Of a stretch of DNA of 64,000 bases, positions 79-48,865 are shown piece by piece. Both the position numbers and the translations under genes were made by a program. Position 1 is the stretch's first letter. Each line of letters opens with the position of its first letter. The notes under the pieces were generated by a model. That model was not told the origin of the DNA, searched no databases, and saw nothing but the letters and a program-made list of their open reading frames with translations. The stretch covers positions 5,172,401 through 5,236,400 of the forward strand of contig OZ251506.1 of assembly GCA_965242835.1 (NCBI GenBank), read 5' to 3'. This stretch comes from Vicinamibacterales bacterium (lineage in GTDB: Bacteria > Acidobacteriota > Vicinamibacteria > Vicinamibacterales > UBA8438).

Positions 79-390
79 ATGCATCGCCGCTCGAAGGCAG
101 CGGGGACTTCGCCACGCGCTGCTAAGGCGACCAATTTGCACCGTCGCAACTTTCCGTCGGCCGCAGCCATTCGGTCGCATTTCACTGAGCAAAACCGGTC
201 CCGTAACCCGGTAACCGAATACCTTCGGCGCACGGTCCTGCGGGACACGGAGAACCGCGGCCGACTTTCCCGGTTGGGATGGGCCGTCGAAGTCGTCTGG
301 GCATGCCAGGCCGACGATCTTGCGCTCGCCCGGTTGACCGAGCGCATTCGCTCGCGCCTTTCTCCGCCCGCGGGCACGGAGCCGGTCTGA
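79..390 (+). pseudogene. vsr: Eroded very-short-patch repair endonuclease (Vsr) remnant
   Basis: The C-terminal part, RDTENRGRLSRLGWAVEVVWAC, matches the Vsr tail (RD..N...L...GW.V..VWEC). The catalytic HGCFWH core is not visible. Its stop overlaps the next ATG (TGATG, 388-392), and a C5-MTase lies nearby. Confidence 0.55.
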
Positions 391-1562
391 TGAATGACTC
401 AAGCGCACGGCAGACGTTGGCCGGCAAGAAAGTCAACCGTATCCATCTGAAGGATCTGTTGCTCGACGCTACGAATCCACGTTTCGGTCTTCAAGACCGA
501 GACGCCAGTCAGGCGCAGATACTCGACCACATAGTCAAGACGTTCGGCGTCAAGGACGTTCTTAGTTCCCTCGCTGTCAACGGTTACTTCGACGCCGAAC
601 CCCTCGTCTGCCGCAGGAATCCAGATTCCAGTAGAGCCACCGTTGTGGAGGGTAACCGGCGGCTGGCAGCGTGTTTGATCATAACCCGCGAAGAGCGCGC
701 ATCCAAGCAGGACAGGCGCTCCGACCAGTTCTCCAAACTGTGGGAAAAGCACGGCCGCCAGCCGATCGATCCCGTGCCGGCAATAACTTTCGCTGCAGGC
801 GAGGAAAAACAGGAGAAGGCGATTCTCTCGTACCTCGGTGTACGGCATATCGCCTCTACTCAACCGTGGGACTCGTATGCGAAAGCCGCATGGGTCGCGC
901 GGGTGGTCCATGAAAGTTCACTCAACGTAAGCGACGTCTCGAAGATGATCGGCGACCAACATAAAACAATAAATCGTATGCTCGAGGGGTATTATCTCGT
1001 TCAGCAGCTCACAAAGACGGGACACTTCAACCAGCAGGACAGCATCCGAAGCGGCAGGGGCAGTGTCACCGACTATCCATTCTCCTGGGTCTACACGGTG
1101 CTCGGTTACAGGACGGTCAGAGATTTTCTGGAACTGGCCGACGGAAACGCAAGTCCGGATCCCGTAAACGAAAACAATCTCGCCAAGGGTTCACTTCTGC
1201 TTCAATCCATGTTTGGCGACAAATCCCGGGGGCGCAGCGCCGCCATCAGCGACTCCCGCCAGTTGGGTGATCTCGCGGCGGTCTTCGCCAACAGGGAAAA
1301 AATGCGGCTTCTTGAACAGGGTAAGGAGCTGGCCGAGATCGACGAACTTACTCAGCCCATCGCGACAAGACTTTCCAGTGGATTGGGAGACGTGCTCGAC
1401 ACTCTTCGCGATCTCGTCGCTCGCCTGTCGGAACAGAACATCCCACAAGAAACGGCAATAGATCTTCTATCAGACTCAAGACGCGTCCGGAAACTGGCGG
1501 TCGACCTGGATAAGAGACTGCAGGAGATCGCACGCGGCGACGATGATGAAGAAGCAGAATGA
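390..1562 (+). CDS. ParB/sulfiredoxin-like N-terminal domain protein
   Basis: Motifs LLLDATNPRF and VVEGNRRLAA are typical of the ParB-N/Srx fold. ATG at 390 is coupled to the upstream stop. Visibly more AT-rich than the backbone. Confidence 0.75.
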   Translation: MNDSSARQTLAGKKVNRIHLKDLLLDATNPRFGLQDRDASQAQILDHIVKTFGVKDVLSSLAVNGYFDAEPLVCRRNPDSSRATVVEGNRRLAACLIITREERASKQDRRSDQFSKLWEKHGRQPIDPVPAITFAAGEEKQEKAILSYLGVRHIASTQPWDSYAKAAWVARVVHESSLNVSDVSKMIGDQHKTINRMLEGYYLVQQLTKTGHFNQQDSIRSGRGSVTDYPFSWVYTVLGYRTVRDFLELADGNASPDPVNENNLAKGSLLLQSMFGDKSRGRSAAISDSRQLGDLAAVFANREKMRLLEQGKELAEIDELTQPIATRLSSGLGDVLDTLRDLVARLSEQNIPQETAIDLLSDSRRVRKLAVDLDKRLQEIARGDDDEEAE

Positions 1563-2490
1563 CCTCTACCGTAAAAGGCATGAAGCGCAGCGCTTCGTCG
1601 TGAATGCGGATCGCGCGGAATTTCAGGCCCTGAGAGATGGATCCGCCGAGATCGATTCAGGCGTCTATAACGAGCGTGTCGCGGATACCCTGGAGGATCT
1701 TGACTTCATTCCGCACGAAACAGAACGCTGGCACGGGGAGGATTTGAAAATTGATACAGCCGTCGGCGGGACACGTGACGAGCTTGAGCGGCGAGTCCGG
1801 ATTCTAGCGGCCGCTTACCCGTTCAGATTGAAGAGAGGAACTCTTTTCCACCACAGCGGCGCATCAAGCGTCTACGAGTTTTTTCTGTCCATCTGCAACG
1901 CCACGACGCTTACAAGGGGCGACCATGCCCGCCTGCCGCGGTTGTTCGAGCGCATCGCCGCGCGGTTGGTCGCTGCATATTTCGGACGACACGCCACGAG
2001 TATTCATACGGGCGCGCCGCGCAGCCCGGACACCGATAGTTCGTTCATGCGGGCGATGCAAGACGTTGCGGCTCAAACCGGGGAGTGGGACTGGGGGCCG
2101 GATGACAGACTTCCCGGAGAACAGCATCAGGGTGACGAAGGTTGTGATTTCATCGTCTGGTTGATGGCTTCCGACCGGCGCAAGATCGGGCAGCTTTTCG
2201 TACTGGGGCAGTGCGCCTGTGGAAACGACTGGCAAAGCAAATACGGCGACCTCGATCTGAAAAAACTTCAGAAATGGTTCAATCCTCTTTCCGTCGTCGA
2301 TCCCGTGAGGAGTTTCGCGACGCCCCATCACGTCACGGACCCTGTTCTGCGCGAAGCGAGCAGGCAAGGCGGCCTGTTTTTCGACAGGGCGCGCTTGACG
2401 ATGGCGGCATTTCAGGCAAGCGATGCTGTCATCGGCGATGAAATGAAGAAGGACATGGAAGATCTGATCGCCCTGGTCCGTGATGCTTGA
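1543..2490 (+). CDS. Putative restriction endonuclease-fold (PD-(D/E)xK-like) protein
   Basis: FERIAA...GDEGCDFIVW...LGQCACGNDW resembles the Mrr-like E..D.G.D..Q.K site, with QCA in place of QxK. Overlaps the ParB-like gene by 20 bp. Confidence 0.55.
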   Translation: MMKKQNDLYRKRHEAQRFVVNADRAEFQALRDGSAEIDSGVYNERVADTLEDLDFIPHETERWHGEDLKIDTAVGGTRDELERRVRILAAAYPFRLKRGTLFHHSGASSVYEFFLSICNATTLTRGDHARLPRLFERIAARLVAAYFGRHATSIHTGAPRSPDTDSSFMRAMQDVAAQTGEWDWGPDDRLPGEQHQGDEGCDFIVWLMASDRRKIGQLFVLGQCACGNDWQSKYGDLDLKKLQKWFNPLSVVDPVRSFATPHHVTDPVLREASRQGGLFFDRARLTMAAFQASDAVIGDEMKKDMEDLIALVRDA

Positions 2491-2495
2491 GCGCG

Positions 2496-3512
2496 TCACC
2501 AGATGTCGCCAAAAGCTCGTCCGATGGCCTCGAACAGCGGCGGCGGGACGGCGTTCCCGACGGCCCGGTACTTTTCCGTCAACGAGCCGGTTTCCGGAAA
2601 GGTCATGTCGCCGAAGCCCTGGAGGCGCGCGGCCTCGCGGTACGAGAACCGGCGCTTGCGCGCATCCTCGCGGGACCAGATCCACTTGTCGACGTGGACC
2701 CGTATCAATTTCGGACTCATCGGGTGCAGCGGCATGTGGCGCGGGTGGCTGACGATGGTCTTGCTCGGTTCGGACCAGTCGCAGCGCCGGTTGCGGGACA
2801 TGTAGTACCAATGAAACTTGTCGGCGCAAAACTCGCCCGCCGGCCACTCCGGCAGGCCGGTCAGGGCGTCGGCCACGGTCCTGGCGCGCTCCTTGCCGTC
2901 AACACCATGCGTGGGGCGTGGAAAGACATAGCGTTCTTCGATGTCGCTTCGCACGCCGACGATGAAGATCCTGGCTCTTCTCTGCGGCACGCCGAAATCG
3001 ACGGCGTCGAGAAGCCGATGCTGAACCCGGTAGCCGGCCATCCGGAACCTGGTGATCTGGTTGCGGAGCAGGTGCGCGAAGTCGCTCCTGCGCATCCCTG
3101 ACACGTTTTCGACGACGAAGGCCCGGGGCTTGATTTGCCGCAGCGCCCTGTCGAACTCCCGATAGAGATAGTTTATCTTTCGGTCGGATTCCCTCGCGCC
3201 GCCCTGACTGAATCCCTGGCACGGATAGCACCCGACCAGAAGATCCGCTTCCGGAAACGAGCGGATTTGCCGTACGTCCTTGCACTGAAAATCGGTTTCC
3301 GGCAGGTTGGCCAGGTACAATTCCCTGGCGTAGGACGCGCTGTCGTTCGCGAACACCACGTCGAAGCCGGCGGCGACGAGCCCCGCGTCCGACCCGCCGC
3401 AACCGCTGAACAGAGACACTACCGTGGGCCGCGTGGACTTCTGGTTGCCGGCTTCCCGCCCGCCGGCCGCGGCCGCGGCCGGCGCAATCCGTTCCCGTGG
3501 TTCGTCGTTCAT
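2496..3512 (-). CDS. dcm: DNA (cytosine-5)-methyltransferase
   Basis: Motifs I FSGCGG, IV PCQGFS, VI ENV, VIII QRRAR, IX REAARLQGF and X GNAV are present. Confidence 0.96.
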   Translation of the reverse strand: MNDEPRERIAPAAAAAGGREAGNQKSTRPTVVSLFSGCGGSDAGLVAAGFDVVFANDSASYARELYLANLPETDFQCKDVRQIRSFPEADLLVGCYPCQGFSQGGARESDRKINYLYREFDRALRQIKPRAFVVENVSGMRRSDFAHLLRNQITRFRMAGYRVQHRLLDAVDFGVPQRRARIFIVGVRSDIEERYVFPRPTHGVDGKERARTVADALTGLPEWPAGEFCADKFHWYYMSRNRRCDWSEPSKTIVSHPRHMPLHPMSPKLIRVHVDKWIWSREDARKRRFSYREAARLQGFGDMTFPETGSLTEKYRAVGNAVPPPLFEAIGRAFGDIW

Positions 3513-3517
3513 TTCGC

Positions 3518-5047
3518 TCAGCCCTTGTTCCCGTCGGGCATCGCGATGCGCCCGGTCACGGCGGCGGCGATGAGCGCGGCGCGGCGCTCTTCAACGAAAG
3601 CGATGGCTTGTCGCACTCTCGCCATGAGCGCCTCCAGCCGCGCCGTTTCCTGATCCAGATAGTCGACGATGGCTCGTTGTTCCCTGAGCGGAGGAACAGG
3701 AACCCGGTAGTTCAGAACGAAATCCTCCGGCACCCTTTTCTGGCCGGCGGCGCCGAACATGGCGGCTTCGCCGAGCTTGCGAAAACGATCGCTGATCGTC
3801 GTGTAGTAAAGCCAGCGCGCGTCGATCTCGGGAATTGGCGTCAGGACGTGAAGCTCGGTTGTCCCGAAGCCGATGCCGTTCAGCATTCCGTCTACGAGGG
3901 CTCCCTTGCCGTTTTCGAAGCACGGCGTGATCTTGGCTACGAGAACGTCGCCATCGAAGAATCGGGTGTAGCCGTTCCGAACGTCGTCGACGTACCGAGT
4001 CGCGGAGCAATCGAGTTCGCCCTGCTCTCCGATGTTCTCCATCGGCAGAAACGTCGCCTGCTCCGCGCCGCTCAGGATTCGCTGCTTTTCCTCCGATAGT
4101 TCTCGTTGCACGAGGAAACGGACGCGCTTGACGGGCCACGCTTGTATTGCGGCGTTCGCGTCGTCAAGCCGGTCGTCTGATTCCCGCCCATTTCGGCCAT
4201 CTGCGGGTTTCGGAATCGCGCATTGGCGCGCGTGGTCGAGACCGCGAGTGACGGCGCGGGTGACGACGGCCCGGCGCTTCTCGGCCAGCAGCTCCAGCAG
4301 GCGCCGTTTCGCCGCCACGAGCGCGTCCAGCCGCGCCGTCTCGCGGTCGAGGTGGTCGGCGACGGCGCGTTGCGTGTCCGCATCGGGAACGGGCACCGGC
4401 ATGTTGCCGATGAAGTCCCAGTCGGCCCGGGGCATCTTCGACCCGAACGTCGAGGCGTCCACGTCGCCCACGAAACGGGACGACAGGCAGACGCTTCGCA
4501 GGAACCGCGGCTCGATGGAGGTCGGCTCCATGACCAGCGCCTCCGTGGTGCAGCGGCCGGGGAACTCGGCGACCCAGGCTTTTGCCAGGTACGGACGGAG
4601 CTTTCCGAAGAGAACGTCGCCGGGCTCGAAGTCGGTGCCCGTCGCCTCGTTCCCGTCAGTCACGGATGGCGCCGACGGGCTGCTGCTTCCTCCGGCGTTC
4701 TGGTGAAAGCACCTGCCGGGCTCCCCGTCGCCGTCAGTCACGGATGGCGCTGGCGGGCTACTCGGATACCTGGCTCTGTCCCTGGACAAGCTGCTGAAGT
4801 CGCCGTCAGTCACGGATGGCGCTGGCAGGCTACTCCCCCGTTTCCCCCGAGGGCCGTTCGCCAGTCTGCCCGTCCCCGACTCGATGTCTTCGAGACCGAC
4901 GTACGGCCGCGCGGCGTCCCCCGCCGAAGTCCGCAGGCGCCGGAGCGCCACGACGTGCTTGAGGCGCTTCGTCGGAAACACCGTTCCGGTGGCCCCAACT
5001 TCGGCAGCCGCGCTCACCCCCGCCACCTCCCGGGCAGGCGCGCTCAC
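3518..5047 (-). CDS. hsdS: Type I restriction-modification specificity subunit, with an in-frame repeat insertion in TRD1
   Basis: Two TRDs (GDVLFGKLRPYL; GDVLVAKITPCFENGK), each followed by the conserved helix (Q.A..D.LD.ETARL; ALIAAAVTG). The GTG start overlaps the hsdM stop (GTGA). Confidence 0.93.
   Translation of the reverse strand: MSAPAREVAGVSAAAEVGATGTVFPTKRLKHVVALRRLRTSAGDAARPYVGLEDIESGTGRLANGPRGKRGSSLPAPSVTDGDFSSLSRDRARYPSSPPAPSVTDGDGEPGRCFHQNAGGSSSPSAPSVTDGNEATGTDFEPGDVLFGKLRPYLAKAWVAEFPGRCTTEALVMEPTSIEPRFLRSVCLSSRFVGDVDASTFGSKMPRADWDFIGNMPVPVPDADTQRAVADHLDRETARLDALVAAKRRLLELLAEKRRAVVTRAVTRGLDHARQCAIPKPADGRNGRESDDRLDDANAAIQAWPVKRVRFLVQRELSEEKQRILSGAEQATFLPMENIGEQGELDCSATRYVDDVRNGYTRFFDGDVLVAKITPCFENGKGALVDGMLNGIGFGTTELHVLTPIPEIDARWLYYTTISDRFRKLGEAAMFGAAGQKRVPEDFVLNYRVPVPPLREQRAIVDYLDQETARLEALMARVRQAIAFVEERRAALIAAAVTGRIAMPDGNKG
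4649..4835 (-). CRISPR. CRISPR-like mini-array (3 x 37-bp repeats, 35- and 41-bp spacers) embedded in frame in hsdS
   Basis: Repeats at 4799-4835, 4727-4763 and 4649-4685. Minus-strand consensus GAGTAGCCCGCCAGCGCCATCCGTGACTGACGGCGAC, with an internal inverted repeat. The last copy is degenerate and the spacers are unrelated. The repeats are directly visible; the CRISPR identity is inference. Confidence 0.5.
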
Positions 5048-5061
5048 CCCGCCACCTCCCG
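5009..5061. repeat. Direct duplication of the hsdM-stop/hsdS-start junction (30-bp period)
   Basis: cgcgctcacccc(c)gccacctcccg at 5009-5032 and 5039-5061. This gives two in-frame GGAGG+GTG starts (5047 and 5017). Confidence 0.85.
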
Positions 5062-7026
5062 CAGCAGCCGCACGATCTCCTCCTCCGCCCGCTTCAGGTC
5101 CGCGTCGATCTCCTCCAGCGGTCTCGGCGGCGTGTAGGCGTAGAAGTGCCGGTTGAAGTTGATCTCGCAGCCCGCCTTGTCCTTGCTCCGGTCCATCCAG
5201 GCGTCGGGGACGTGGGGGCGGACCTCGCGCGCGAAGTACTCGTCGACGTCCTCGGTCCGCGGGACGTTCTCGAAGTCGCGCAGCTTCGGGTCCGGCTCGA
5301 AACCGTCTCCGCCCTCGGCGCGGACCGGCTCGGCGGCGGGGTCGCGGACGGTGAACACGTCGCGGAACAGCCGGTGCTCGGTCTTGCGCCAGTACGACTC
5401 GCGTTCGCGCAGCAACGCGGCGATGCCCTCGCGGACGGCGTTCCAGTCGGGCAGCGGCTCGCGGCCGATCCGCTCGTCGATGGCCTGCACGTCGTCGAGC
5501 AGCAGCGGGCAGGCGTCGAGGAAGCGCGCCTTGTCGTCGACGCTCATCCGCCAGCGCAGCCGGAGCGGGCGCTCGACGGTGACGCGGGTGTAGCCGAAGT
5601 CGGCGTTGTCGAAGATCTTCGACCGCGCGCCCTCCTCGAAGCGGCCGTACAGCCGCACGATCTCGTCGATCTGCCCGGCCGACAGGTGGCGGCGCTTGTC
5701 GCCGAGGCTGCGCCGGCTCTCGGGGCTGCCGCCGGCCGTCCACAGGCCGCGGGCGTCGACCAGCTGCACCCGGCCGCGGCGCGCCGGCGCCTTGCGGTTG
5801 GTGACGATCCAGACGTAGGTGCCGATGCCGGTGTTGTAGAACATCTGCTCCGGCAGGGCGACGACCGCTTCGAGCCGGTCGTTCTCCAGGATCCAGCGGC
5901 GGATCTCGCTCTCGCCGGAGCCCGCGCCGCCGGTGAACAGGGGCGAGCCGCTGAAGACGATGGCCAGGCGCGAGCCGTGCCGGCGCTCCTTCGGGCGCAG
6001 CGGCTCGAACTTGTCGATCATGTGCTGCAGGAACAGCAGCGCGCCGTCGTTCACCCGCGGCAGCCCGGCCCCGAAGCGGCCGGCGAAGCCGCGCTGCTCG
6101 TGCTCGCGCCGCACCGCGTCCCGCTGCCGCTTCCAGTCGACGCCGAACGGCGGGTTGGTGAGGAAGTAGTCGAACGTCTCGCCGGCGAAGCGGTCGTCGA
6201 CCAGGCTGTCGCCGAAGCGCACGGCGTCGCCGCCGCCGTCGCGGCTGACCTCCTTCATCAGCATGTCGGAGGCGGCGGTGGCGTAGGCGCGCTTGTTGTA
6301 GTCCTGGCCGCGGACGTAGAGCGCGGCCTCCGGGTGGTGCTCGCGCAGCCAGCCCTGCGCCTCGGCCAGCATGCCGCCGGTGCCGCAGGCGGGGTCGAGC
6401 AGCGTGCGGACGGTTCCCGGCGCGGCGAGCAGCGCGTCGTCGTCGATGAACAGCAGGCCGACCATCAGCCGGATGACCTCGCGCGGCGTGAAGTGGTCGC
6501 CGGCGGTCTCGTTGGCCAGCTCGTTGAAGCGGCGGATCAGGTTCTCGAAGATCAGCCCCATCTGCGCGTTGGGCACCGTGTCGGGGTGCAGGTCCACCGA
6601 ACGGAAGCGCGAGACGACCATGTAGAGGATGTTCGCCTCCTGCATCTTCTCGACCTCGGCCTCGAACTCGAAGCACTCGAAGATGCGGCGCACGTTGGCC
6701 GAGAAGCCCTGGACGTAGCTGACGAGGTGCTGCGCGACGTGGTCCGGGTCGCCCTGCAGCTTCTCGAAGTCGAGCGGCGAGCGGTTGTGGAAGCGCTGGC
6801 CGGCGACCGCGGCGAGCCGCTTGTCGAGGGCTTCGCCCCGCAGCCGCGCCTTGCGCCGCGCGTGCTCGGCGAGCACCTTCGCCTTCGTGGGGGCGAGCAC
6901 GCAGTCGAAGCGGCGCAGCACGGTCATCGGCAGCATCACGCGCTCGTACTGCGGCGGGCGGTAGGGGCCGCGCAGCAGGTCGGCGATCTGCCAGATCAGG
7001 GTGGCGAAGGCGCCGTGGTCGGGCAT
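5044..7026 (-). CDS. hsdM: Type I restriction-modification N6-adenine methyltransferase subunit
   Basis: N-terminal IWQIADLLRG..LRRFDCVL, then GDHFTPREVI, DPACGTGGML, NPPFG and C-terminal EINFNRHFY. Confidence 0.96.
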   Translation of the reverse strand: MPDHGAFATLIWQIADLLRGPYRPPQYERVMLPMTVLRRFDCVLAPTKAKVLAEHARRKARLRGEALDKRLAAVAGQRFHNRSPLDFEKLQGDPDHVAQHLVSYVQGFSANVRRIFECFEFEAEVEKMQEANILYMVVSRFRSVDLHPDTVPNAQMGLIFENLIRRFNELANETAGDHFTPREVIRLMVGLLFIDDDALLAAPGTVRTLLDPACGTGGMLAEAQGWLREHHPEAALYVRGQDYNKRAYATAASDMLMKEVSRDGGGDAVRFGDSLVDDRFAGETFDYFLTNPPFGVDWKRQRDAVRREHEQRGFAGRFGAGLPRVNDGALLFLQHMIDKFEPLRPKERRHGSRLAIVFSGSPLFTGGAGSGESEIRRWILENDRLEAVVALPEQMFYNTGIGTYVWIVTNRKAPARRGRVQLVDARGLWTAGGSPESRRSLGDKRRHLSAGQIDEIVRLYGRFEEGARSKIFDNADFGYTRVTVERPLRLRWRMSVDDKARFLDACPLLLDDVQAIDERIGREPLPDWNAVREGIAALLRERESYWRKTEHRLFRDVFTVRDPAAEPVRAEGGDGFEPDPKLRDFENVPRTEDVDEYFAREVRPHVPDAWMDRSKDKAGCEINFNRHFYAYTPPRPLEEIDADLKRAEEEIVRLLREVAG

Positions 7027-7214
7027 CGGGCGGTCTGGTCCGGCCGGCGGGCGGCGGCGGGCGCCAAGCTCCTGCGCCCGCCGGGGCCGGGCGGCGGGCG
7101 TCCCGCGGGCGCCGTCCTGCCCGGGCGGCGGCCCGGCGACCCGCGGCCCCGGGGGCGGCCGGAACCGGGGCCGCGCCCCGTCATCCCCCCGCCGGGCGGT
7201 CCGGCTTCCTCCTG

Positions 7215-11921
<4,707 letters not shown>

Positions 11922-13609: not shown

Positions 13610-14878
13610 ATGCGCTATCGCTACACGCGCTACACGGGCGAGGACATCGAGGGCATCGACCTCGACGAGCTGGTCTCGAAGCTCTCCCGGCTGTTCCTGT
13701 CCAGCGGCTTCGGCGGCGCCCGCGGTCCCGGCGGCCCGCCGGACGAGGACGAGGACGAAGACCGCGGCCTGCAGTCGCTGCACGACGCGATCCTCGACGC
13801 GATCCTCGACGGCGGCCTGCTCTCCGACGACGCGCTGCAGCGTCTGCTGGGCGACCCCGCCGACGGCGATCAGGGCGGCGGCCGACCGGGCCTCGAAGAG
13901 TTGATCCGGGAGATCGTCCAGCGCATGGCGGAGCGGGGTTACGTCTCGCTGGAGTCCGGCGAGTCCGCCCCGGGCGCCGGCGGCGGCCCGGACCGGGACG
14001 CCCCCCCGGCGCGTTTCCGGGTCACGGACAAGAGCCTCGACTTCCTCGGCTACCGCGCCCTGCGGGAGCTCCTCGGGTCGCGGGGGCGCGGCGCCGTCGG
14101 CCGGCACGACACGCGGGAGCTGGCCACGGGCGTGGAGGCGGGCGGCGCATCGAAGCCGTACGAGTTCGGAGACACCCTGAACCTCGACCCCAGCGGCACC
14201 ATCCTCAACGCGGTGCGGCGGGCGGCGGCCGTCGGGAGCGGCGCCGTCGACGTGCGCCACCAGGACCTGATGGTCGCGCAGGGCGAGTACCAGAGCTCGT
14301 GCGCGACGGTCCTCATGCTCGACTGCAGCCACAGCATGATCCTCTACGGCGAGGACCGCTTCACGCCGGCCAAGCAGGTGGCCCTGGCCCTGTCCCACCT
14401 GATCCGCGGGCAGTACCCCGGGGACGCCCTGAACGCCGTCCTGTTCCACGACTCCGCCGAGGAGATTCCGCTGAAGCGGCTCGCGCGCGTGCGCGTCGGC
14501 CCGTACTACACCAACACCCGGGAGGGGCTGCGGCTGGCGCGCCGCATCCTGGAACGCCAGCGCAAGGACATGCGGCAGATCGTGATGATCACCGACGGCA
14601 AGCCCTCCGCCCTGACGCGGCCCGACGGAAGCATCTACCGCAACGCGTTCGGCCTCGACCCGACGATCATCCGCGAGACGTTCGCCGAGGTGGCCCACTG
14701 CCGGCGCGCCGGCATCATGATCAACACGTTCATGCTGGCGCGCGACTACGAGCTGGTGAGCTTCGTGCGGCGGGTGGCGGCCATCTGCCGCGGCAAGGCG
14801 TACTTCACGACGCCGCGCACCCTGGGGCGCTACGTCCTCATGGACTACATGGACAAGAAGACGAAGACGGTGCACTGA
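13610..14878 (+). CDS. VWA domain-containing protein (partner of the AAA+ ATPase)
   Basis: MIDAS motifs LDCSHSM, YTN and ITDGKP. Confidence 0.85.
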
Positions 14879-15517
14879 GTGCCGACCGCCCACCTGCCCG
14901 GCCGGATCCCGCTCTTCCCGCTCCCGAACGTGGTGCTGTTCCCGGACGTCTTCCTGCCGCTGCACGTCTTCGAGCCGCGCTACCGCGAGATGGTGGCCGA
15001 CGCCGTCGACGGCGAGCGGCTGATCGGGATGGTGCTGCTCCGCGGCGGCTGGCGGAACGCCGGCGTCAACCCGCCGATCCACCCGGTCGGCTGCGCGGGC
15101 CGCATCACCCACCTCGCGCCGCTCCCCGGCGGGCGCTACGACGTCGTGCTGCGCGGTCTGCAGCGCTTCCGCGTGCGGGACGAAGACCATTCGCGGGCCT
15201 ACCGGGTCGCGGCGATCGACGGCCTGCCGGACGGCCCCGCGGCCGAACCGGGGCCGCGCCTCCGGGCGGGCCGCCGGCGGCTGGAGGACCTGCTGGGACG
15301 ACAGGCGGCGGCCGGCCCGGCCCCGCGCATCCCGCCGGGCATGGGCGACGCCGAGCTGGTCAACGTCCTGTCCCAGTACCTCGAGCTCGAGCCGATCGAG
15401 CGGCAGGCGCTGCTGGAGAAGGACCACCCCTGCGACCGCTGCGCGGCGCTGATCGACCTGCTCGAAATGCGTCTGATGGCCGACGGCGGGCCGTTCCCCG
15501 CCGCCGGCGTGCACTAG
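14879..15517 (+). CDS. LON peptidase substrate-binding (LonN) domain protein
   Basis: IPLFPLPNVVLFP..LPLHVFEPRYREMV. GTG start directly after the upstream stop. Confidence 0.88.
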   Translation: MPTAHLPGRIPLFPLPNVVLFPDVFLPLHVFEPRYREMVADAVDGERLIGMVLLRGGWRNAGVNPPIHPVGCAGRITHLAPLPGGRYDVVLRGLQRFRVRDEDHSRAYRVAAIDGLPDGPAAEPGPRLRAGRRRLEDLLGRQAAAGPAPRIPPGMGDAELVNVLSQYLELEPIERQALLEKDHPCDRCAALIDLLEMRLMADGGPFPAAGVH

Positions 15518-15625
15518 GGGGGTCCGCCTACCGCGGCTGGATGGTCGACTCGGCGTGACCCGGACAGAACGTCACGGACGCCGCGCCGCGGATCGACGCG
15601 GCGCTCGACGTCGACTCCGACCTCG

Positions 15626-16063
15626 TCATCCTCCCGACCCGACCATGCGCAGGAGGGCGAACAGCGCCGCGGCCTGAATCCCGGCGATGGCGACCCCGGC
15701 GCCGACGAGCCGCCACGCCAGGCGCGCCTCGAGGGCAGCCAGCTCGGCGGTCATCTTGATGCCCATGCGCTCTTCAAGGGCCGCGACGTCCTCCTTCGTG
15801 GCGAAGTGCGTCATGCGCTCGTCGAGGCGCGCTTCGAGGGCGACGACGTTCGCCTGCACGGCGGCAACGTCCGCCTGCACGGCGGCAACGTCCGCCTGCA
15901 CGGCGGCGACGTCGGCCTTCGTGGCCAGCGCGTCGACGTCGACGGCGGCGGCGGCGGTGTCGTGCTCGGCGGCCTCGCGGACGGCGGCGGTGATGGCGTC
16001 GGCCTGGGCGTCGGTCAGGTCGGCCGCCGTCAGCGAGCGGGCGATGGCGTGCGTGTCGAACAT
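15626..16063 (-). CDS. DUF1640/CCDC90-like coiled-coil protein with C-terminal membrane anchor
   Basis: MFDTHAIARSL...QADAIT, LATKADV heptads and a hydrophobic C-terminus. GGGGAG RBS before ATG 16063. Confidence 0.75.
   Translation of the reverse strand: MFDTHAIARSLTAADLTDAQADAITAAVREAAEHDTAAAAVDVDALATKADVAAVQADVAAVQADVAAVQANVVALEARLDERMTHFATKEDVAALEERMGIKMTAELAALEARLAWRLVGAGVAIAGIQAAALFALLRMVGSGG
15851..15913. repeat. 3 x 21-bp coding tandem repeat (heptad ADVAAVQ)
   Basis: cgcctgcacggcggcaacgtc repeated three times, the last copy with one mismatch. Confidence 0.9.
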
Positions 16064-16076
16064 ACGTCTCCCCATC

Positions 16077-16241
16077 CTACGGCGCTGACCGTTCGGTCCG
16101 CGCCAGCAGGGTCGCGTCGATGCGGCCGTTCAGCGCCCGCACGTCGCGCCGGATCTCGGCGACGTCGTGCCGCGGGTCGCGCCGGGTCCAGAGCAGCGCC
16201 CCCACGACCGCCAGCGTCGCGCCGAGCACCTCGTAGTCCAT
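16077..16241 (-). CDS. Small single-TM coiled-coil protein (54 aa)
   Basis: MDYEVLGATLAVVGALLW hydrophobic segment, then VAEIRRDVRALNGRID. Confidence 0.5.
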   Translation of the reverse strand: MDYEVLGATLAVVGALLWTRRDPRHDVAEIRRDVRALNGRIDATLLARTERSAP

Positions 16242-16380
16242 CGTCGCTTCCACCCCGTTCCCCCCATCCTGCTGCTGCTGCGCGCCGGTCTGCCGACGCT
16301 CCAGGGCGGCCACCCGGTATCGGAAACGATACCATTGGCACGTGATCGAGGATCAGATGAATCGGCGCGGGGGCGGGGGT

Positions 16381-18453
16381 TCAGCGGATCGTGATGCCGG
16401 TGATGAAGTTCGAGTACGTCCGGTCCGGTTCGGCGCCCTCGTCCGCCCGGGTCGTCAACCGCACCTGGAGCCCGTGGCGGCCCCGGTCGAACGTCAGCGG
16501 TATCGAAAAACGGTAGCCGGAGACCTCGTCGCAGACCGTGACGGTCCGGATGCCGTCGCCGTCTTCGTCCGGCGGACCGTCGATGTGGTCCTGCCGCACG
16601 CAGACCTCGACCACGTCCGCCGCCGCGCTCGACGTGACCCTCCCCGCGAAGGTGATGCGTTCGCCCGCCGCCATCGCGCCCGGCACCGGCTCGTCGAGCC
16701 GCACGATCCGGAATTCTCCCGGGTCGATCGGGACGTCCGACACCCGTAGCGGCGGGTCGTTGACGATCCGGCTGCCGTCCGGCCGCTCCACCGCCGTATC
16801 GAGCACCGCGCGCCCGCCGGTCGCCTCGTGGAACGACGGCATGCCCCCGAAGGTGGTCACGCCGGAGCGCGCCGCGTGGCGCGCCGCGAAGAAGTTCCAG
16901 TAGTTCATCTCCTCGGCGGACAACGGCCGGCTCCGCGAGACGACGACGGTCACCCGCCGCCAGGACGAGTCCACCGGCCCGCTACGCGCGCCGTGCAGCG
17001 CCAGGACGTCGTTGAAGTGGACCGCCCTCCCCTCTCCCTCGACCGCGGTTCCCACGTCCGGAACCGCCGCGGCTTCTTCGCCGAACTGCCCCTGTTCCTC
17101 GAAGACGACCATCTCCGGGAGCTCTTCCGGCTCGATCAGCCCCATGCGGTACAGGGTGGTCGGGTGGAACAGCGACGGAGCCGGCGTCCGTTCGATCACG
17201 TAGGACCGCTCGCCTTCGCCGCCGCCAGCCAGCCCGACGCGCCATATGTGGGGCAGGACGGCGCCGAGGAGCGTCTCGCCGGGAAACAGCAGCGGCGTGT
17301 GTGTGGCCGGGCTCCATCCCGCGCGCTCGACGCCGCCGGCGAGCGAGGACCAGTCCCAGTAGTCGGCCCACTGGTGGCCGATTTCGTGGTTCGACGTCCA
17401 GGCGGTCGTGAAGTCGGCGTCCCGATAGAACTCCACGGACCGCAGCACCCCGTCGCTGCCGAAGGAATCGGAGCCGTCGAAGACCTCCATCTCGCCCAGG
17501 CCGGCGATGGGGTTGCGCACGTTCCAGTGAAACGCGCTGAACTGGGCGCTGGGGTGCTGCTCGGCGGAGACGATGGCGATCGAGTCGTAGACGTCGGGGA
17601 AGAACTCGTAGAACTTCCGCGTCACTTCCTCGATCTCGAAGGCGAAGTCGTTCGCCACCTGCAGCCGCCAGTTGCCGAAACCGGGGAAGACGACGTTCAC
17701 GACGTGACTGGCGTACTGGACGCCGCGGCCGGCCTGCTGGACGCGCGATTCGGGAAGGTTGAGCGGCGCGGCCGGCAACGAGATGTGCACTTCGTCGAAG
17801 TCGTCCTCGCCGTCGCCCGCGTCCGCGTCGGACGCGTCGGTCAGCTCTTCCCGCTTCGGGACCCGCAACACGCCGAAGTAGACGACCGGGCTGTCGAACC
17901 CGCGGCGTCTCGAGCCGATGGTGTCCCACAGCGCCGCCTCGTCCCAGACCGGGTCGAAGACGCTGAGCGGCCGGCTGTCGTAGGTCCTCCTCGCGGTGCG
18001 CGTCCAGGTCTCGACCACGGGTTCGCCGGCGGCGATCGACCAGCGTTCGAACTCCAGGGTCTCGACGTCGCCGGCCACCACGAAGCTCCGGAACGCGAGT
18101 CCCCCCGTGCCGTCGGCGCGGATCAGCCGCGGCTGCTGGTCGAACCACAGCGGTTGCCCGCGCCACCGCGCCGGGTATTCGACCGCCGAACGGACGGCCC
18201 AGGGCGGGTCGATGCCCGACGCCGCCCAGCGGGCGCGCAGTTCGGGCGTGCCGCAGACGGCCGGCGGGTCGGCGGCCGCCCCCCGCGGCCAGGGATCGCC
18301 GCCCGCCTCCGGCGCTTGATCCTGCGCGGCCGGCGCCCCGTGCAACAGCAGCGCCGCCGCGGCGCCGGCGGCCGCCAAGCCGCGGCGGCGCCGCCGGCCG
18401 AACGACGCCGGCGCTCGCCGCGGCGATGGGCAAGACTTCGACCCCGGCGGCAT
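16381..18453 (-). CDS. Secreted putative zinc metallopeptidase
   Basis: Arg-rich then Ala-rich signal peptide, HEIGH zincin motif and LYRMGL Met-turn-like segment. Start uncertain. Confidence 0.6.
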   Translation of the reverse strand: MPPGSKSCPSPRRAPASFGRRRRRGLAAAGAAAALLLHGAPAAQDQAPEAGGDPWPRGAAADPPAVCGTPELRARWAASGIDPPWAVRSAVEYPARWRGQPLWFDQQPRLIRADGTGGLAFRSFVVAGDVETLEFERWSIAAGEPVVETWTRTARRTYDSRPLSVFDPVWDEAALWDTIGSRRRGFDSPVVYFGVLRVPKREELTDASDADAGDGEDDFDEVHISLPAAPLNLPESRVQQAGRGVQYASHVVNVVFPGFGNWRLQVANDFAFEIEEVTRKFYEFFPDVYDSIAIVSAEQHPSAQFSAFHWNVRNPIAGLGEMEVFDGSDSFGSDGVLRSVEFYRDADFTTAWTSNHEIGHQWADYWDWSSLAGGVERAGWSPATHTPLLFPGETLLGAVLPHIWRVGLAGGGEGERSYVIERTPAPSLFHPTTLYRMGLIEPEELPEMVVFEEQGQFGEEAAAVPDVGTAVEGEGRAVHFNDVLALHGARSGPVDSSWRRVTVVVSRSRPLSAEEMNYWNFFAARHAARSGVTTFGGMPSFHEATGGRAVLDTAVERPDGSRIVNDPPLRVSDVPIDPGEFRIVRLDEPVPGAMAAGERITFAGRVTSSAAADVVEVCVRQDHIDGPPDEDGDGIRTVTVCDEVSGYRFSIPLTFDRGRHGLQVRLTTRADEGAEPDRTYSNFITGITIR

Positions 18454-37746: not shown

Positions 37747-37824
37747 CGGAACGCTTCTTGCTTGCTTCCGCACCGGCGGCGCGCACGCGCGTCGGCTGGC
37801 GGGGATGGCCCGCTCGGCGACCGT

Positions 37825-37928
37825 CACGACCGGCCGGCGGCGCACCCGCGCGCACCTACGCGATGACGCGCGCCGAGACCGAGGAGCGGAAGTCGACACG
37901 ACCGGCCGGCGGCGCACCCGCGCGCACC
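37825..37928. repeat. Perfect 32-bp direct repeat pair with 40-bp spacer (period 72)
   Basis: cacgaccggccggcggcgcacccgcgcgcacc at 37825-37856 and 37897-37928. Confidence 0.95.
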
Positions 37929-38816: not shown

Positions 38817-38926
38817 CCGACGGCCGCCCACGCGCCTCGACGGCGGTTCAGGCTCGGCCGAGGTCGCCGCGTAATACTGTCGATAGCCGACCGACGGCCG
38901 CCCACGCGGATCGACGGCGGTTCAGG
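38817..38926. repeat. 36-bp direct repeat pair (34/36) with 38-bp spacer (period 74)
   Basis: ccgacggccgcccacgcg(cc/ga)tcgacggcggttcagg at 38817-38852 and 38891-38926. Confidence 0.93.
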
Positions 38927-46988: not shown

Positions 46989-48865
46989 GCGACCATCACC
47001 CGTTCGGCTTCGTCGAGGAGCGGATCCGTCTCCGCGTCGCCGCCGGCGGCGGCCGCCGGCGGCGCGAAACGGCGGCGGTCGCACTGGGCGAGACACGCCA
47101 GACAGCGCTCGATCACGCCGGCTTCGACGCCGCGCGCGGCGAGCGCCCGGCGGACGTCGTCGCGCACCAGCCCGGCCTCGGCCACGTTCAGCGAGTCGCC
47201 GAGGAAACCCAGCAGGGCCTGGCTGATCGCCGCCGCGCACGCCTGGCGCTGCTCCGGGGCGCGCAGCTTCCGCGCCTGCGCGAGACGCGAGCGCGCGAGA
47301 CGCGAGGCGCGGCGGCGGCGGGCCCAGGCCACGTTCCCCGCCAGGCGCTCGCGGTGGCGGCGCAGCGCGAGCGCCCCGGCCAGCCCGAGGACCGGGACCA
47401 GCAGCACCGTCCAGAAGGCGGCGCCGTGCGCCAGCCGGCGGCCGGCCGGCGCGAACCCCGAGGTCGCGAGACGGATGAACCGGATGTCCCGGCGCGCGGC
47501 CGCCGCCCGCGGGCCGCCCGCGCCGCCCGCGACGGCGCCGGCCACCGCGGCGGCGCCGCTCACCACCACGGTGACCGGGTCCGAGGCGGCGACGGCGTAC
47601 CGTCCGCCGGCGGCGTCGAAGTAGGCCAGCTCGACGGCCGGAACGGTGTGCGATCCGGGCGCGCGCGGAACCAGGACGTACTCGTAGCGCCGGACGCCGC
47701 GCACGCCCTCCGCGCCGGCCTCGAGATCGTCGCTCACCTCCGGCGGATAGACGTCGAAGTCCGCCGGAAAGGCGACCTCCGGTTCGGGCAGCGCGCGCAG
47801 GTTGCTCGACCCGCGCACGTCGAGACGGAAGGTGAGCGCCTCGTTCGCCGCCGCCGCGGCCGTGTCGAGCGAGGCCGTGACGTCCAGGGCGCCGACCAGG
47901 CCGGTGAAGGCGTCCGGGCGGCCCGCGGCCGGCAGGGGGCGCGCTTCGATCTCGATCGGCGCGGATTCGGCGGGGACCCCCACCGTGCCTCCGAACAGCC
48001 CCCCGCCGAAGGGAGAGCCGAGGCCGAACGGATCGCGGAACGAGCGCAGCCGCACCTGCGCCTCGATCGCGAGCGGCTCGATGGTCCGCGGCCCGGCGCC
48101 GGTCGGATAGAGCGCCGCCCGGCGGACGACGGTGGTCACGTACCGCGCGCCGCCGCGCTCGACCCGCTCGACCCGCGGAGCGCGCGCGTCGGCGATCTCC
48201 TCGACCCAGAAGCCCTCTGCGCCCGGCGCCCGGACGATGCCGTAGGACTCGACGTCCACGCGCGTGAACAGGCGGTACTCCACCAACACGGGCTGGTTCA
48301 CCCACGGCTCGCGCGTGCTCACCGACGCCTCGACGAACAGGTCCTCGGGACCGACGTCCGGCGCGCGCGTCAGGTCCGGCCCGCGCCCCCGGGGCGCGGC
48401 GGCGGGCGGCGTGACGTGGAGCGCGAGGGGCTCGGTGGCGTACTCCTCCCCGTCGACCCGTACGTGGACCGGGCCGATCTCGTGGGTCCCTTCCGTCACC
48501 GCCCGGAAGGTGTAGTGGTAGGCGAACGAGGTCGACGAGCGGCCGTTGACGAACTGCATCGAGCGGCGGGAACCGGCGCGAAGGTAGGCGGCGAAGCCGG
48601 ACAGATCGGGCAGGCGGGGATCCTCGTCCGCGCCCCCGGAGCCCGACACCTCGACGGTCAGGTTGAACTCCCGGCCCACCGGCACGGCGTCGCGGTCCAG
48701 GAAGGCGCGGACCGCCGCGTCCTGCGCCGCCGCGGAAGCGGACACGCCGAGGAACAGCAGCACGAGCGCGCTTTTTCCCGCCACGCCGCGGGAAGCGCGC
48801 AAACGGCAGGGTGCGCCGAGGAGAAACAACAGCACGAGCGCGCTTCTTCTCGCCACGGGGTTCAC
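46964..48865 (-). CDS. batD: BatD family protein
   Basis: Signal peptide, BatD Ig-like repeats, C-terminal TM, position in the bat operon. Confidence 0.85.
   Translation of the reverse strand: MNPVARRSALVLLFLLGAPCRLRASRGVAGKSALVLLFLGVSASAAAQDAAVRAFLDRDAVPVGREFNLTVEVSGSGGADEDPRLPDLSGFAAYLRAGSRRSMQFVNGRSSTSFAYHYTFRAVTEGTHEIGPVHVRVDGEEYATEPLALHVTPPAAAPRGRGPDLTRAPDVGPEDLFVEASVSTREPWVNQPVLVEYRLFTRVDVESYGIVRAPGAEGFWVEEIADARAPRVERVERGGARYVTTVVRRAALYPTGAGPRTIEPLAIEAQVRLRSFRDPFGLGSPFGGGLFGGTVGVPAESAPIEIEARPLPAAGRPDAFTGLVGALDVTASLDTAAAAANEALTFRLDVRGSSNLRALPEPEVAFPADFDVYPPEVSDDLEAGAEGVRGVRRYEYVLVPRAPGSHTVPAVELAYFDAAGGRYAVAASDPVTVVVSGAAAVAGAVAGGAGGPRAAAARRDIRFIRLATSGFAPAGRRLAHGAAFWTVLLVPVLGLAGALALRRHRERLAGNVAWARRRRASRLARSRLAQARKLRAPEQRQACAAAISQALLGFLGDSLNVAEAGLVRDDVRRALAARGVEAGVIERCLACLAQCDRRRFAPPAAAAGGDAETDPLLDEAERVMVALGEALRS
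48745..48857. repeat. In-frame duplication of the BatD signal peptide (period 69/72)
   Basis: VARRSALVLLFLLG / VAGKSALVLLFLG. DNA copies at 48745-48785 and 48814-48857. Confidence 0.88.

Follow-up and report, generated by a model that had tools for sequence, protein, structure and literature searches.

The hsdS gene of a Vicinamibacterales bacterium, which encodes the specificity subunit of a type I restriction-modification (RM) system, contains three 37-nt direct repeats separated by inserts of 35 and 41 nt, and we consider it probable that this arrangement is the fossil of two ectopic spacer integrations by a Cas4/Cas1-Cas2 complex of type I-G geometry, retained in frame in a tolerant loop of the protein. 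The gene lies in a 64,000-nt stretch of the genome (positions 5,172,401 to 5,236,400 of contig OZ251506.1; hereafter, the window), and our judgement of ectopic integration extends to the genome as a whole, in which the hsdS locus would be one of about 150 such scars. An earlier description made from the letters alone (the sequence-only reading) had recognized a CRISPR-like mini-array within HsdS, and had proposed that it might be processed into CRISPR RNAs (crRNAs) or might tune HsdS specificity. The anatomy that it reported stands, and the functions that it proposed find no support.

The repeats, whose positions are listed in Table 1 together with those of the inserts, start 78 and 72 nt apart, and their number, their length (within the 23-47 nt class), their regular spacing and the lack of relationship between the spacers give the locus the geometry of a CRISPR array. 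Coordinates, lengths and differences among the copies are as first described, and the two spacer strings quoted then are the reverse complements of the 41-nt and 35-nt inserts. Because the bases bordering the two near-identical copies differ on both sides, the younger duplication comprises exactly 37 bp around exactly 35 bp. A search of the 5,274,819-bp genome (a single contig of 72% guanine plus cytosine, GC) for the 37-mer, allowing up to six substitutions, returned three matches, which are the three copies alone. Tandem Repeats Finder makes no call in the hsdS repeat region. Compared with the repeat, with each other and with the 150-nt flanks, the inserts show no significant similarity (Smith-Waterman alignments with 500 shuffles each; lowest shuffle fraction, 0.052). 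A contig from an independent sequencing run (X11, record 9) spans window positions 4470-5173 with no differences, and contigs of two other studies cover the locus with zero to few differences; the three-copy sequence recurs without differences in records 29 and 30 of run X8 and with few differences in records 2-4 of run X1. The three-copy hsdS locus is real, and it is neither a product of chance, nor a simple tandem repeat, nor an artefact of assembly.

Both the repeats and the inserts are translated. They lie on the minus strand of an intact open reading frame (ORF), in frame within the target-recognition domain as the sequence-only reading had it, between ...ESGTGRL and FEPGDVLFGKLRPYL of HsdS; the encoded peptides follow one another in the order GTGRLANGPRGKRG-SSLPAPSVTDGD-FSSLSRDRARYP-SSPPAPSVTDGD-GEPGRCFHQNAGG-SSSPSAPSVTDGN-EATGTDFEPGDVLFGKLRPYL. 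That reading also placed the repeats where HsdS normally has a short loop, and the site was right, although the detail needs amending: the stretch from GTGRL to FEPGD has 24 aa in most relatives and 77 aa here. The identity of the protein is supported by its Methylase_S match, by two domains split by long helices and by 3930 homologues at E<=1e-10. An AlphaFold2 model of the 509-aa protein, built from 47 aligned sequences (mean predicted local distance difference test score, pLDDT, of 80; predicted template modelling score, pTM, of 0.75), consists of two globular domains with long helices at residues 223-275 and 454-497. Residues 68-133, the part encoded by the repeats with their inserts, lack secondary structure and score below 50 in pLDDT, such that the modelling suggested earlier for placing the loop predicts that the repeats occupy a disordered loop of target-recognition domain 1 within an otherwise confident model. 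In the family at large, this loop is already variable and of low complexity.

If the duplications at hsdS were made by a CRISPR integrase, their dimensions should match those of the arrays that reside in the same genome. There are 801 canonical CRISPR repeats in three families (A and B of 36 nt and C of 37 nt; repeat A reads GTTTTCC...ATTGAAGC), with 792 spacers of 34-42 nt. A length of 35 nt is common among these spacers (53 of 244 in the main C array, 43 of 269 in the main A array), whereas one of 41 nt is rare (three of 269 in the main A array, zero in C). The genome has two Cas1 genes, which adjoin arrays A and C, and both are in type I-G modules accompanied by Cas3g, Cas7g and Csb2. Upstream of array A is a Cas4g/Cas1g fusion (830 bits to NF049935) with Cas2, beside which lie Cas3g, Cas8g/Csx17, Cas7g, Csb2 and a type III-B Cmr2/Cmr3 pair; upstream of array C are a separate Cas4 and Cas1. 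The CRISPR-like geometry noted at hsdS is thus meaningful, in that it fits the resident arrays (36-37-nt repeats, 34-42-nt spacers) and in that the newest unit and the degenerate repeat are placed as they would be in an array. Taken together, the length of the duplication (that of a resident repeat, 36/37), insert lengths within the resident range, the existence of single-copy alleles and the presence of adaptation modules are what ectopic integration calls for.

The single-copy and intermediate states are found among paralogues, homologues and alleles. An hsdS paralogue that this genome carries about 19 kb from the contig start, and that is about 90% identical in the domain, has one copy (...GTGRLVNGAGASNRPSAPSVTDETPGTDFEPGD). 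The homologues were drawn from a collection of 5.8 billion proteins, and what follows refers to the best 120 of the 3930 relatives. Most of these have 43 aa from LE.IES.TGRL to FEPGDVLF, and, apart from the proteins named next, those with a delimitable loop have either one copy of ..SSPSAPSVTDGNE.. or none. The three-copy loop occurs in three foreign proteins from other assemblies, which are 92-97% identical to the HsdS of the window; in 12 others the loop is 66-71 aa long and has two copies, with a homologue of GEPGRCFHQNAGG (GEPGRCF..-type) between them; and in five that belong to the G053 clade, the two copies enclose another insert (SDRLGAGRPHGRA). In the G053 loop the copies are 60 nt apart and identical at 22 of 28 positions in a 28-nt window, which is the unit size of type I-E, and two proteins of this clade (P0055 and P0058) have a further 24-aa insertion that duplicates, at the protein level, a 12-aa segment beside it. 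When a tree of the domain is built after removal of the loop (68 rows), the 24-aa loop comes out as ancestral, and short loop forms are nested among the two-copy forms, which fits later deletions. In addition, in a contig of run X12 that is diverged by about 10%, only 32 letters, alignable with the 41-nt insert, separate position 4678 from 4801; this is an allele carrying the older insertion only. Because single- and two-copy states exist, the window allele can be decomposed into one ancestral site, an old 78-nt insertion (E1) and a younger 72-nt insertion (E2). E2 is the exact 37-bp duplication around the 35-bp insert and is common to close relatives only, and E1 (~37 + 41 = 78 nt) is common to a diverged clade of homologues.

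Other surveys extended this picture little. A scan of metagenomes of the JGI for the repeat core returned 13 loci, none in an hsdS and all chance matches. A scan of GTDB species representatives with the domain alignment gave 80 loci, of which only L027 (the same as L008 of G053) was near enough to carry the motif. A family-wide search of 104 genomes found G053 and G044; when the search was widened to 401 genomes of the order, the one gain was G355, whose loop is ordinary. One protein, P0035, has a loop (...GKWGARQRHPRLTATGSPAGASTRTPEESSPSATSVTDGNE...) that resembles the two-copy loop with its first repeat and insert translated in another frame before the original frame is regained, which, on this resemblance, suggests that the HsdS loop tolerates almost any sequence.

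The hsdS locus is not alone in its geometry. We scanned the genome outside its five arrays for interspaced direct repeats (14-nt seed, repeat >=20 nt, gap >=15 nt, period 20-200), removed self-repetitive sequences and counted repeats of 24-44 nt. Periods of 60-62 and of 70-75 stand out as sharp peaks in the histogram, accompanied by harmonics, and these peaks also survive a stricter low-complexity filter. Counts at periods 60, 61 and 62 are 10, 51 and 10, and those at periods 70 through 75 are 8, 19, 50, 24, 17 and 16; nearby periods that are not multiples of three have zero to three counts each. The '72' class, defined by periods 69-77, comprises 106 loci (99 with two copies, six with three and one with four), with a repeat mode of 36-38 nt and a gap mode of 36 nt, and its loci have inserts of 33-38 nt within 36-38-nt duplications. 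The '61' class comprises 49 loci with repeats of 28-29 nt and gaps of 32-33 nt, a type I-E-like geometry. The repeat is unlike that of any other locus at 95 of the 106 '72' loci and occurs exactly twice in the genome for 70 of the 106; because the repeats are mostly locus-specific, the '72' loci are not a dispersed element family. Nor do the inserts resemble, beyond random level, the sequence that follows the second copy.

Many of these inserts are copies of sequences found elsewhere in the genome. Thirty-five of 187 match another genomic site at E<=1e-4, many over their full length (30-38 nt) at 97-100% identity, and two match canonical spacers (30/31 to spacer 3 of array C, 31/34 to spacer 136 of array A). 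The trinucleotide TTC lies directly 5' of the donor, in one orientation, at three of 10 non-redundant '72' loci versus about 0.14 expected, and AAG or AA|G does so at three of the six '61' loci with a donor, all of these being small numbers with boundaries uncertain by 1-2 bases. The canonical spacers themselves yielded no protospacer-adjacent motif, their self-matches being mostly partial and GC-rich. Most '72' loci lie outside genes: by a crude rule based on GC by codon phase, in-frame coding was called at four of the 106, versus a coding call for 75% of random 300-nt windows. Apart from hsdS, likely in-frame cases are at genome positions 1616456 and 5250506. The former (1616456-1616565; positions 757-866 of locus L200) is in the linker of a sulfatase-like protein, where ARRDARPAETGAA-DRVGTGRRGRS-ARRDARPAGTGAA spans a 72-nt unit, and the orthologues in four genomes of the same genus have linkers without the duplication. 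At the intergenic locus at genome position 211586, synteny within the genus breaks exactly at the locus. Three further loci are in the window itself (Table 1), between genes or at gene edges, and were confirmed by a separate repeat search.

The two classes have features that we record for themselves. Many '61' loci appear by eye to share a central CGCGCGCGG motif, and an end of the form ...CGTTGCG... recurs, as an impression, in about five of 67 pseudo-repeats of 36-38 nt. No type I-E Cas1 was found anywhere in the genome, and the 49 I-E-like loci suggest an I-E integrase that was lost or that acts in trans; a Cas6e gene (PF08798, 95 bits) does lie beside a four-repeat type I-E-like array (GGCAGCCCCGCGCACGCGGGGATAGACC) at genome positions 4720236-4721542 (G000:C1). 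A repeat element of about 90 nt, present in more than 60 copies of 87-98% identity (e.g., at query positions 7165-7257 of the L001 flank) and of REP/MITE-like (repetitive extragenic palindromic or miniature inverted-repeat transposable element) look, probably explains a separate peak at periods 82-84.

Searching with the two hsdS inserts, as the sequence-only reading had recommended, gave a mixed outcome. The 35-nt insert matches a gene segment that is present three times in the genome (28 of 35 positions without gaps, 23 of 24 in the core), and none of 400 dinucleotide shuffles scored as high. This segment encodes a protein with DUF1156 and N6/N4 methylase domains, and because the match is on the strand opposite to the hsdS reading, the likeness is one of DNA. 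We regard the match as moderate evidence, from sequence comparison, for a putative genomic donor. The 41-nt insert yielded no genomic source, and the phage and plasmid collections gave nothing usable for either insert (best E-values, 0.4 to 8). The repeated segment (locus L001) is 3.4 kb long, occurs at 2001613-2005069, 2671924-2675379 and 3535731-3539186 of G000:C1 with 99.4-99.5% identity, covers most of a 1253-aa DUF1156 and N6/N4 methylase gene and has a 31-nt/72-nt repeat locus of its own.

In CRISPR adaptation, staggered nicks are made at the two ends of a repeat-length target, the prespacer is ligated in, and fill-in synthesis duplicates the target. Applied to hsdS, the ancestral gene would have had one copy of a 36-37-nt segment encoding SSPSAPSVTDG(N); staggered cuts at the ends of this segment would have been followed by ligation of a spacer-sized fragment, and gap repair would have left the segment duplicated on both sides. 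The first event (~37 + 41 = 78 nt) would be the old one that is clade-wide among homologues, and the second (37 + 35 = 72 nt) would have struck the copy nearest the 5' end of the gene. Because both events add a multiple of three bases and no stop codon, and do so in what is predicted to be a disordered surface loop, HsdS would have stayed intact and the insertions could be kept. We infer that a type I-G integrase was the enzyme responsible, that the events occurred in this order, and that for the RM system the insertions were probably neutral.

To compare the period peaks among genomes, we took equal samples of 400 kb each (20 evenly spaced pieces of 20 kb) and counted pairs at periods 70-75, at periods 60-62 and at 47 other periods. 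Of 85 family genomes with >=90% completeness, 49 yielded a Cas1, as did all 14 of the other genomes from the genus of the window. The counts are 31, 3 and 10 in G098, a Cas1-positive member of the same genus; 15, 8 and 7 in G000, the genome of the window; 5, 1 and 12 in the Cas1-positive G053; 9, 1 and 8 in G051, in which no Cas1 was found; and 0, 0 and 3 in G028 (GC 0.70), in which no Cas1 was found either. The peaks are strongest in the genus of the window, and G098 exceeds the window's genome in scar-type pairs per sampled DNA. Because G028 shows no peaks, they are not a property of high-GC DNA as such.

How, then, do other explanations of the hsdS repeats fare? That the locus is a functional mini-array within a gene, its hsdMS-dcm transcript being cut by a Cas6-type RNase to yield crRNAs or to regulate the RM system, or its spacers turning over to tune HsdS, was the proposal of the sequence-only reading. 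The spacing is indeed regular and the inserts are unique, with the newest unit on the 5' side and a degenerate repeat at the distal end; proteins that process crRNAs are encoded in the genome (Csb2, a Cas5/6 fusion, twice, and Cas6e once); and the coding-strand repeat end ACGGCGAC agrees at five of eight positions with the end of repeat B. But the genome's own repeats end in ATTGAAGC, GTTGAGCG and GCTGTGAC (the last being repeat B), and its type III genes are of type III-B (Cmr), not of the III-A type to whose crRNA tag the repeat ends were likened; searches for PF01881 and PF10040 revealed no stand-alone Cas6. In addition, the similarity of the hsdS repeat to repeats A, B and C reaches at best 17 of 34 aligned positions (null mean, 16.5), a score equalled by 47.7% of 3000 random genomic 37-mers, and the repeat lacks the 7-8-bp GC hairpin of genuine repeats (-9.3 kcal/mol and an irregular fold, versus -14 to -17 kcal/mol and clean 7-8-bp stems for A, B and C). 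Rfam returned no match for it at E<=1, whereas the control array A matches CRISPR-DR16 with 45.4 bits. Thus, the hsdS locus resembles arrays A, B and C in repeat length (36-37 nt), range of spacer lengths and polarity of the degenerate repeat, but differs from them in sequence, in lacking a hairpin, a leader and cas neighbours, in its position inside an intact ORF and in having three repeats only; its repeats are at genome positions 5177049-5177235, about 76 kb from the nearest cas1, which starts at 5253463. Diverged homologues retain the older insert as a fixed part of the protein; this, and the lack of similarity to any genomic CRISPR repeat, are two of the three outcomes that the sequence-only reading had itself set against its proposal. 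Nor is there a sign of spacer gain and loss: the three-copy allele is near-constant across the contigs of three studies, the runs yielded a single two-copy allele, which is about 10% diverged, and neither a four-copy allele nor a one- or two-copy allele of the same strain was found in contigs of four runs, with the proviso that contigs drop rare variants. We conclude that the hsdS locus is most probably not a working CRISPR array and judge a functional role of this kind to be very improbable. Still less credible is an artefact of assembly or consensus calling in a long-read metagenome-assembled genome. The assembly is a single contig whose largest CRISPR array spans both contig ends with odd inverted blocks and repeated spacers, which might raise suspicion, but the short contigs of runs X11, X8 and X1 and the three-copy loops of the three foreign proteins refute such an origin for hsdS.

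A more serious contender, although still an unlikely one, is ordinary expansion of a low-complexity loop by slippage, unequal crossing-over or repair filler, in which the PAPSVTDG peptide was selected and the linkers drifted with no CRISPR enzyme involved. Loop length is hypervariable among homologues (15-77 aa), with apparent deletions and the frameshift-like P0035; the SAPSVTDG motif is conserved in single-copy relatives; the 41-nt insert has a 9-nt string (GAGCCCGGC, coding strand) in common with the downstream flank, and its alignments to flank and repeat are borderline (0.052 each); and the 24-aa insertion of P0055 and P0058 could, as a protein-level impression, be a degenerate tandem copy. 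However, if selection on the peptide had maintained the repeats, we would expect synonymous drift, and the two copies are identical at 36 of 37 positions in DNA, with inserts that are similar to each other and to the flanks at no more than random level. Furthermore, the lengths of duplication and insert match the resident CRISPR geometry exactly, and the match of the 35-nt insert is to the other strand of a gene at a distant place. Selection on protein cannot explain about 100 mostly intergenic loci with periods that are not multiples of three and with copied inserts, and the Cas1-free control G028 shows none of them. Other candidates were discarded outright: a diversity-generating retroelement (there is no template repeat, and the repeats are 37 nt), a transposon footprint or attachment sites (there is no element, and target duplications are usually far shorter) and an hsdS shufflon (there is no inverted partner, and the repeats are direct and within one domain). 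A phase-variable hsdS switching repeat number is improbable, in that copy number did not vary among contigs of otherwise identical strains, although contigs would miss switching at low frequency.

Ectopic integration, which we prefer, has its own difficulties. The hsdS repeat has no likeness to canonical repeats, and two hits at the same site, with others at that site in other lineages, are unexplained. Of the 37 positions of the distal copy, six are changed, most of them towards the two ends; the older unit, at 78 nt, is outside the 69-77 class, with a 41-nt insert in the tail of the spacer-length distribution; because of this divergence and atypical size, the older event is less securely of the ectopic-integration kind. 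The 3' ends of pseudo-repeats are weakly canonical-like (mean 5.69 vs. 5.46 of 10; p = 0.014 and 0.022, Mann-Whitney tests). The putative donor match of the 35-nt insert is partial, hits of >=40 bits are not rare among genuine spacers, which are richer in GC (at least 55 for the 792), the BLAST E-value of 1e-4 is too favourable for so GC-rich a genome, and no TTN adjoins the genomic match; for the 41-nt insert, no source was found in the genome or in the phage and plasmid collections. The GC-phase rule is crude enough to have labelled the hsdS locus 'gene edge', and one of the four in-frame '72' loci is a true leucine-rich repeat (LRR) protein (genome position 3622937), which means that the excess at period 72 is partly contaminated. 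Lastly, the link to present-day Cas1 is loose, in that G051 has some signal with no Cas1 found and the Cas1-positive G053 has little. Scars may outlive their CRISPR systems.

The kind of event that we propose has a precedent at the bench. Nivala, Shipman and Church (2018, Nat Microbiol 3:310) reportedly observed that off-target integration in E. coli spawns new repeat-spacer units ('neo-CRISPR'), and, according to text citing that work, there is said to be circumstantial natural evidence for two other species. As far as these accounts go, the likeness is close: a spacer-sized fragment enters a non-CRISPR site, a repeat-length target is duplicated, and the resulting unit can be hit again. There, by the same accounts, the system was type I-E with an over-expressed integrase in E. 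coli; here, it is natural and of type I-G (plus I-E-like) geometry, with about 150 scars per genome, and in hsdS the insertions are fixed in frame in a coding gene and conserved across diverged homologues.

Repeats are also known to alter HsdS length. In EcoR124I and EcoR124II, the number of 4-aa repeats in the central conserved region varies and changes the gap in the recognition sequence. Those repeats are short, contiguous and in a central helical spacer, whereas the 37-nt units here are interspaced, lie in what is modelled as a disordered loop of domain 1 and come with no sign of a change in specificity. Genes for repetitive proteins can likewise produce false-positive 'CRISPRs' with regular repeats in an ORF, of which the LRR gene at 3622937 is one, but in these the spacers are mutually homologous and every period is a multiple of three; the inserts described here are unrelated, and the class also peaks at 61, 71, 73 and 74. 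Close to the proposed enzyme is the Cas4/1 fusion of the Geobacter sulfurreducens I-U (now I-G) system (Almendros et al. 2019, PMC6547450); the spacers that it acquires together with Cas2 are predominantly 36 bp long, and it selects for TTN on their upstream side. The gap mode of 36, the TTC at three of 10 donors and the Cas4g/Cas1g fusion of the window's genome parallel these properties; in that work, integration is at a leader-repeat, whereas the sites here would be chromosomal and off-target.

Table 1. Positions of the hsdS repeats and inserts, neighbouring genes and other interspaced duplications in the window (position 1 is the first letter of the window).
Feature	Position	Strand	Remarks
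hsdS, type I restriction-modification specificity subunit, 509 aa, intact	3518..5047	-	Pfam Methylase_S (PF01420), E=2.2e-9
Repeat copy nearest gene 5' end, 37 nt	4799..4835	-	encodes SSLPAPSVTDGD; 1 nt (1/37) off copy 4727-4763
Younger insert ('spacer'), 35 nt	4764..4798	-	encodes FSSLSRDRARYP; with one repeat copy, would form the 72-nt insertion (event E2)
Middle repeat copy, 37 nt, reference	4727..4763	-	encodes SSPPAPSVTDGD
Older insert ('spacer'), 41 nt	4686..4726	-	encodes GEPGRCFHQNAGG(S); with one repeat copy, would form the 78-nt insertion (event E1)
Distal diverged repeat copy	4649..4685	-	6/37 differences from copy 4727-4763; encodes SSSPSAPSVTDGN; runs on into ancestral downstream sequence
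hsdM, 660 aa, directly upstream, overlaps hsdS start	5044..7026	-	HsdM_N, E=3.7e-23; N6_Mtase, E=1.8e-46
C-5 cytosine DNA methyltransferase gene (dcm), downstream of hsdS	2496..3512	-	PF00145, E=1.7e-59
Two-copy locus, 35-nt repeat, 72-nt spacing	37822..37928		insert matches genome 2079601 (35 nt, 97%)
Two-copy locus, 36-nt repeat, 74-nt spacing	38817..38926		between oppositely oriented genes
Two-copy locus, 37-nt repeat (copies 89% identical), 72-nt spacing	48749..48857		repeat search

The neighbours of hsdS include hsdM and dcm (Table 1). The window contains no hsdR, and the nearest HsdR-like match (genome positions 5156327-5158165) is about 18 kb off and below the family cut-off. Exactly at the junction of the hsdM stop and the hsdS start is a tandem duplication of 29-30 nt (2.3 copies; window positions 5003-5071), owing to which the N-terminus of HsdS repeats ...AREVAG VSA.... 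Contigs from other runs have differing joints here (4977 to 5054, 4979 to 5044 and 4989 to 5043), which indicates that the hsdM/hsdS junction varies among alleles. Adjoining dcm, two plus-strand ORFs of 427 and 315 aa (window positions 279-2490) have a GC content of 0.56-0.58 versus 0.72 and no Pfam match, and they may be horizontally acquired partners of the methylase with, e.g., a restriction or Vsr-like function. None of the 12 runs listed as containing the stretch is recorded as RNA, and several of them (among X1-X4, X6 and X7) are labelled as sponge metagenomes.

The resident arrays show peculiarities of their own. Family A arrays occupy both ends of the contig in opposite orientations (G000:C1 1-13426 and 5255107-5274759, with 270 and 161 repeats), with small inverted blocks at 63-457 and 535-1661 and repeated spacers near position 1. 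Either two giant arrays with inversions really stand head to head here, or the assembly is at fault. Between cas3g and the cas4/1 fusion gene (G000:C1 5250506-5254521; about 14100-18100 of locus L003), at least six loci have a geometry of 36-37/70-73, including a three-copy locus at genome position 5251905 whose insert matches a five-copy genomic element. This cluster may represent the remains of an array or, beside the cas operon, a hot spot for integration.

One could go further and regard CRISPR integrases as a pervasive natural mutagen of this Vicinamibacterales lineage, which scatters repeat-spacer-repeat units, seeds arrays and writes in-frame peptides, with the HsdS loop as a preferred, recurrent target whose insertions are kept for altered RM behaviour. 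We think it improbable that this wider view is correct. It would count at least three and perhaps four independent events in one 24-aa loop across homologues, at 72/78 nt (I-G-like) and at 60 nt (I-E-like), and insertions so kept may change the RM enzyme, e.g., in its escape from anti-restriction or in its assembly.

The narrower reading, ectopic integration, addresses the questions of how new CRISPR arrays originate and what off-target Cas1-Cas2 activity costs the host. Since this kind of event is known from the bench, what is new is its natural setting, the occurrence of I-G and I-E-like geometries together, the number of scars and the in-frame, fixed spacers conserved in homologues; in the literature that we covered (full texts, few subscription journals and no supplements), there is no report of in-frame fixed spacer integrations or of genome-wide natural scars, which does not prove that none has been published. 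A natural genome and its genus contain some 150 of these scars in two geometries, mostly intergenic and many with self-derived inserts, and at least three are in frame, or likely so, within genes (hsdS and genome loci 1616456 and 5250506). If this reading is true, such genomes would hold a natural record of site choice by the integrase and of self-sampling in type I-G systems, and small CRISPR calls of 'evidence level 1' may be real products of integrases and not noise. CRISPR adaptation would, moreover, create protein-coding insertions that persist over evolutionary time.

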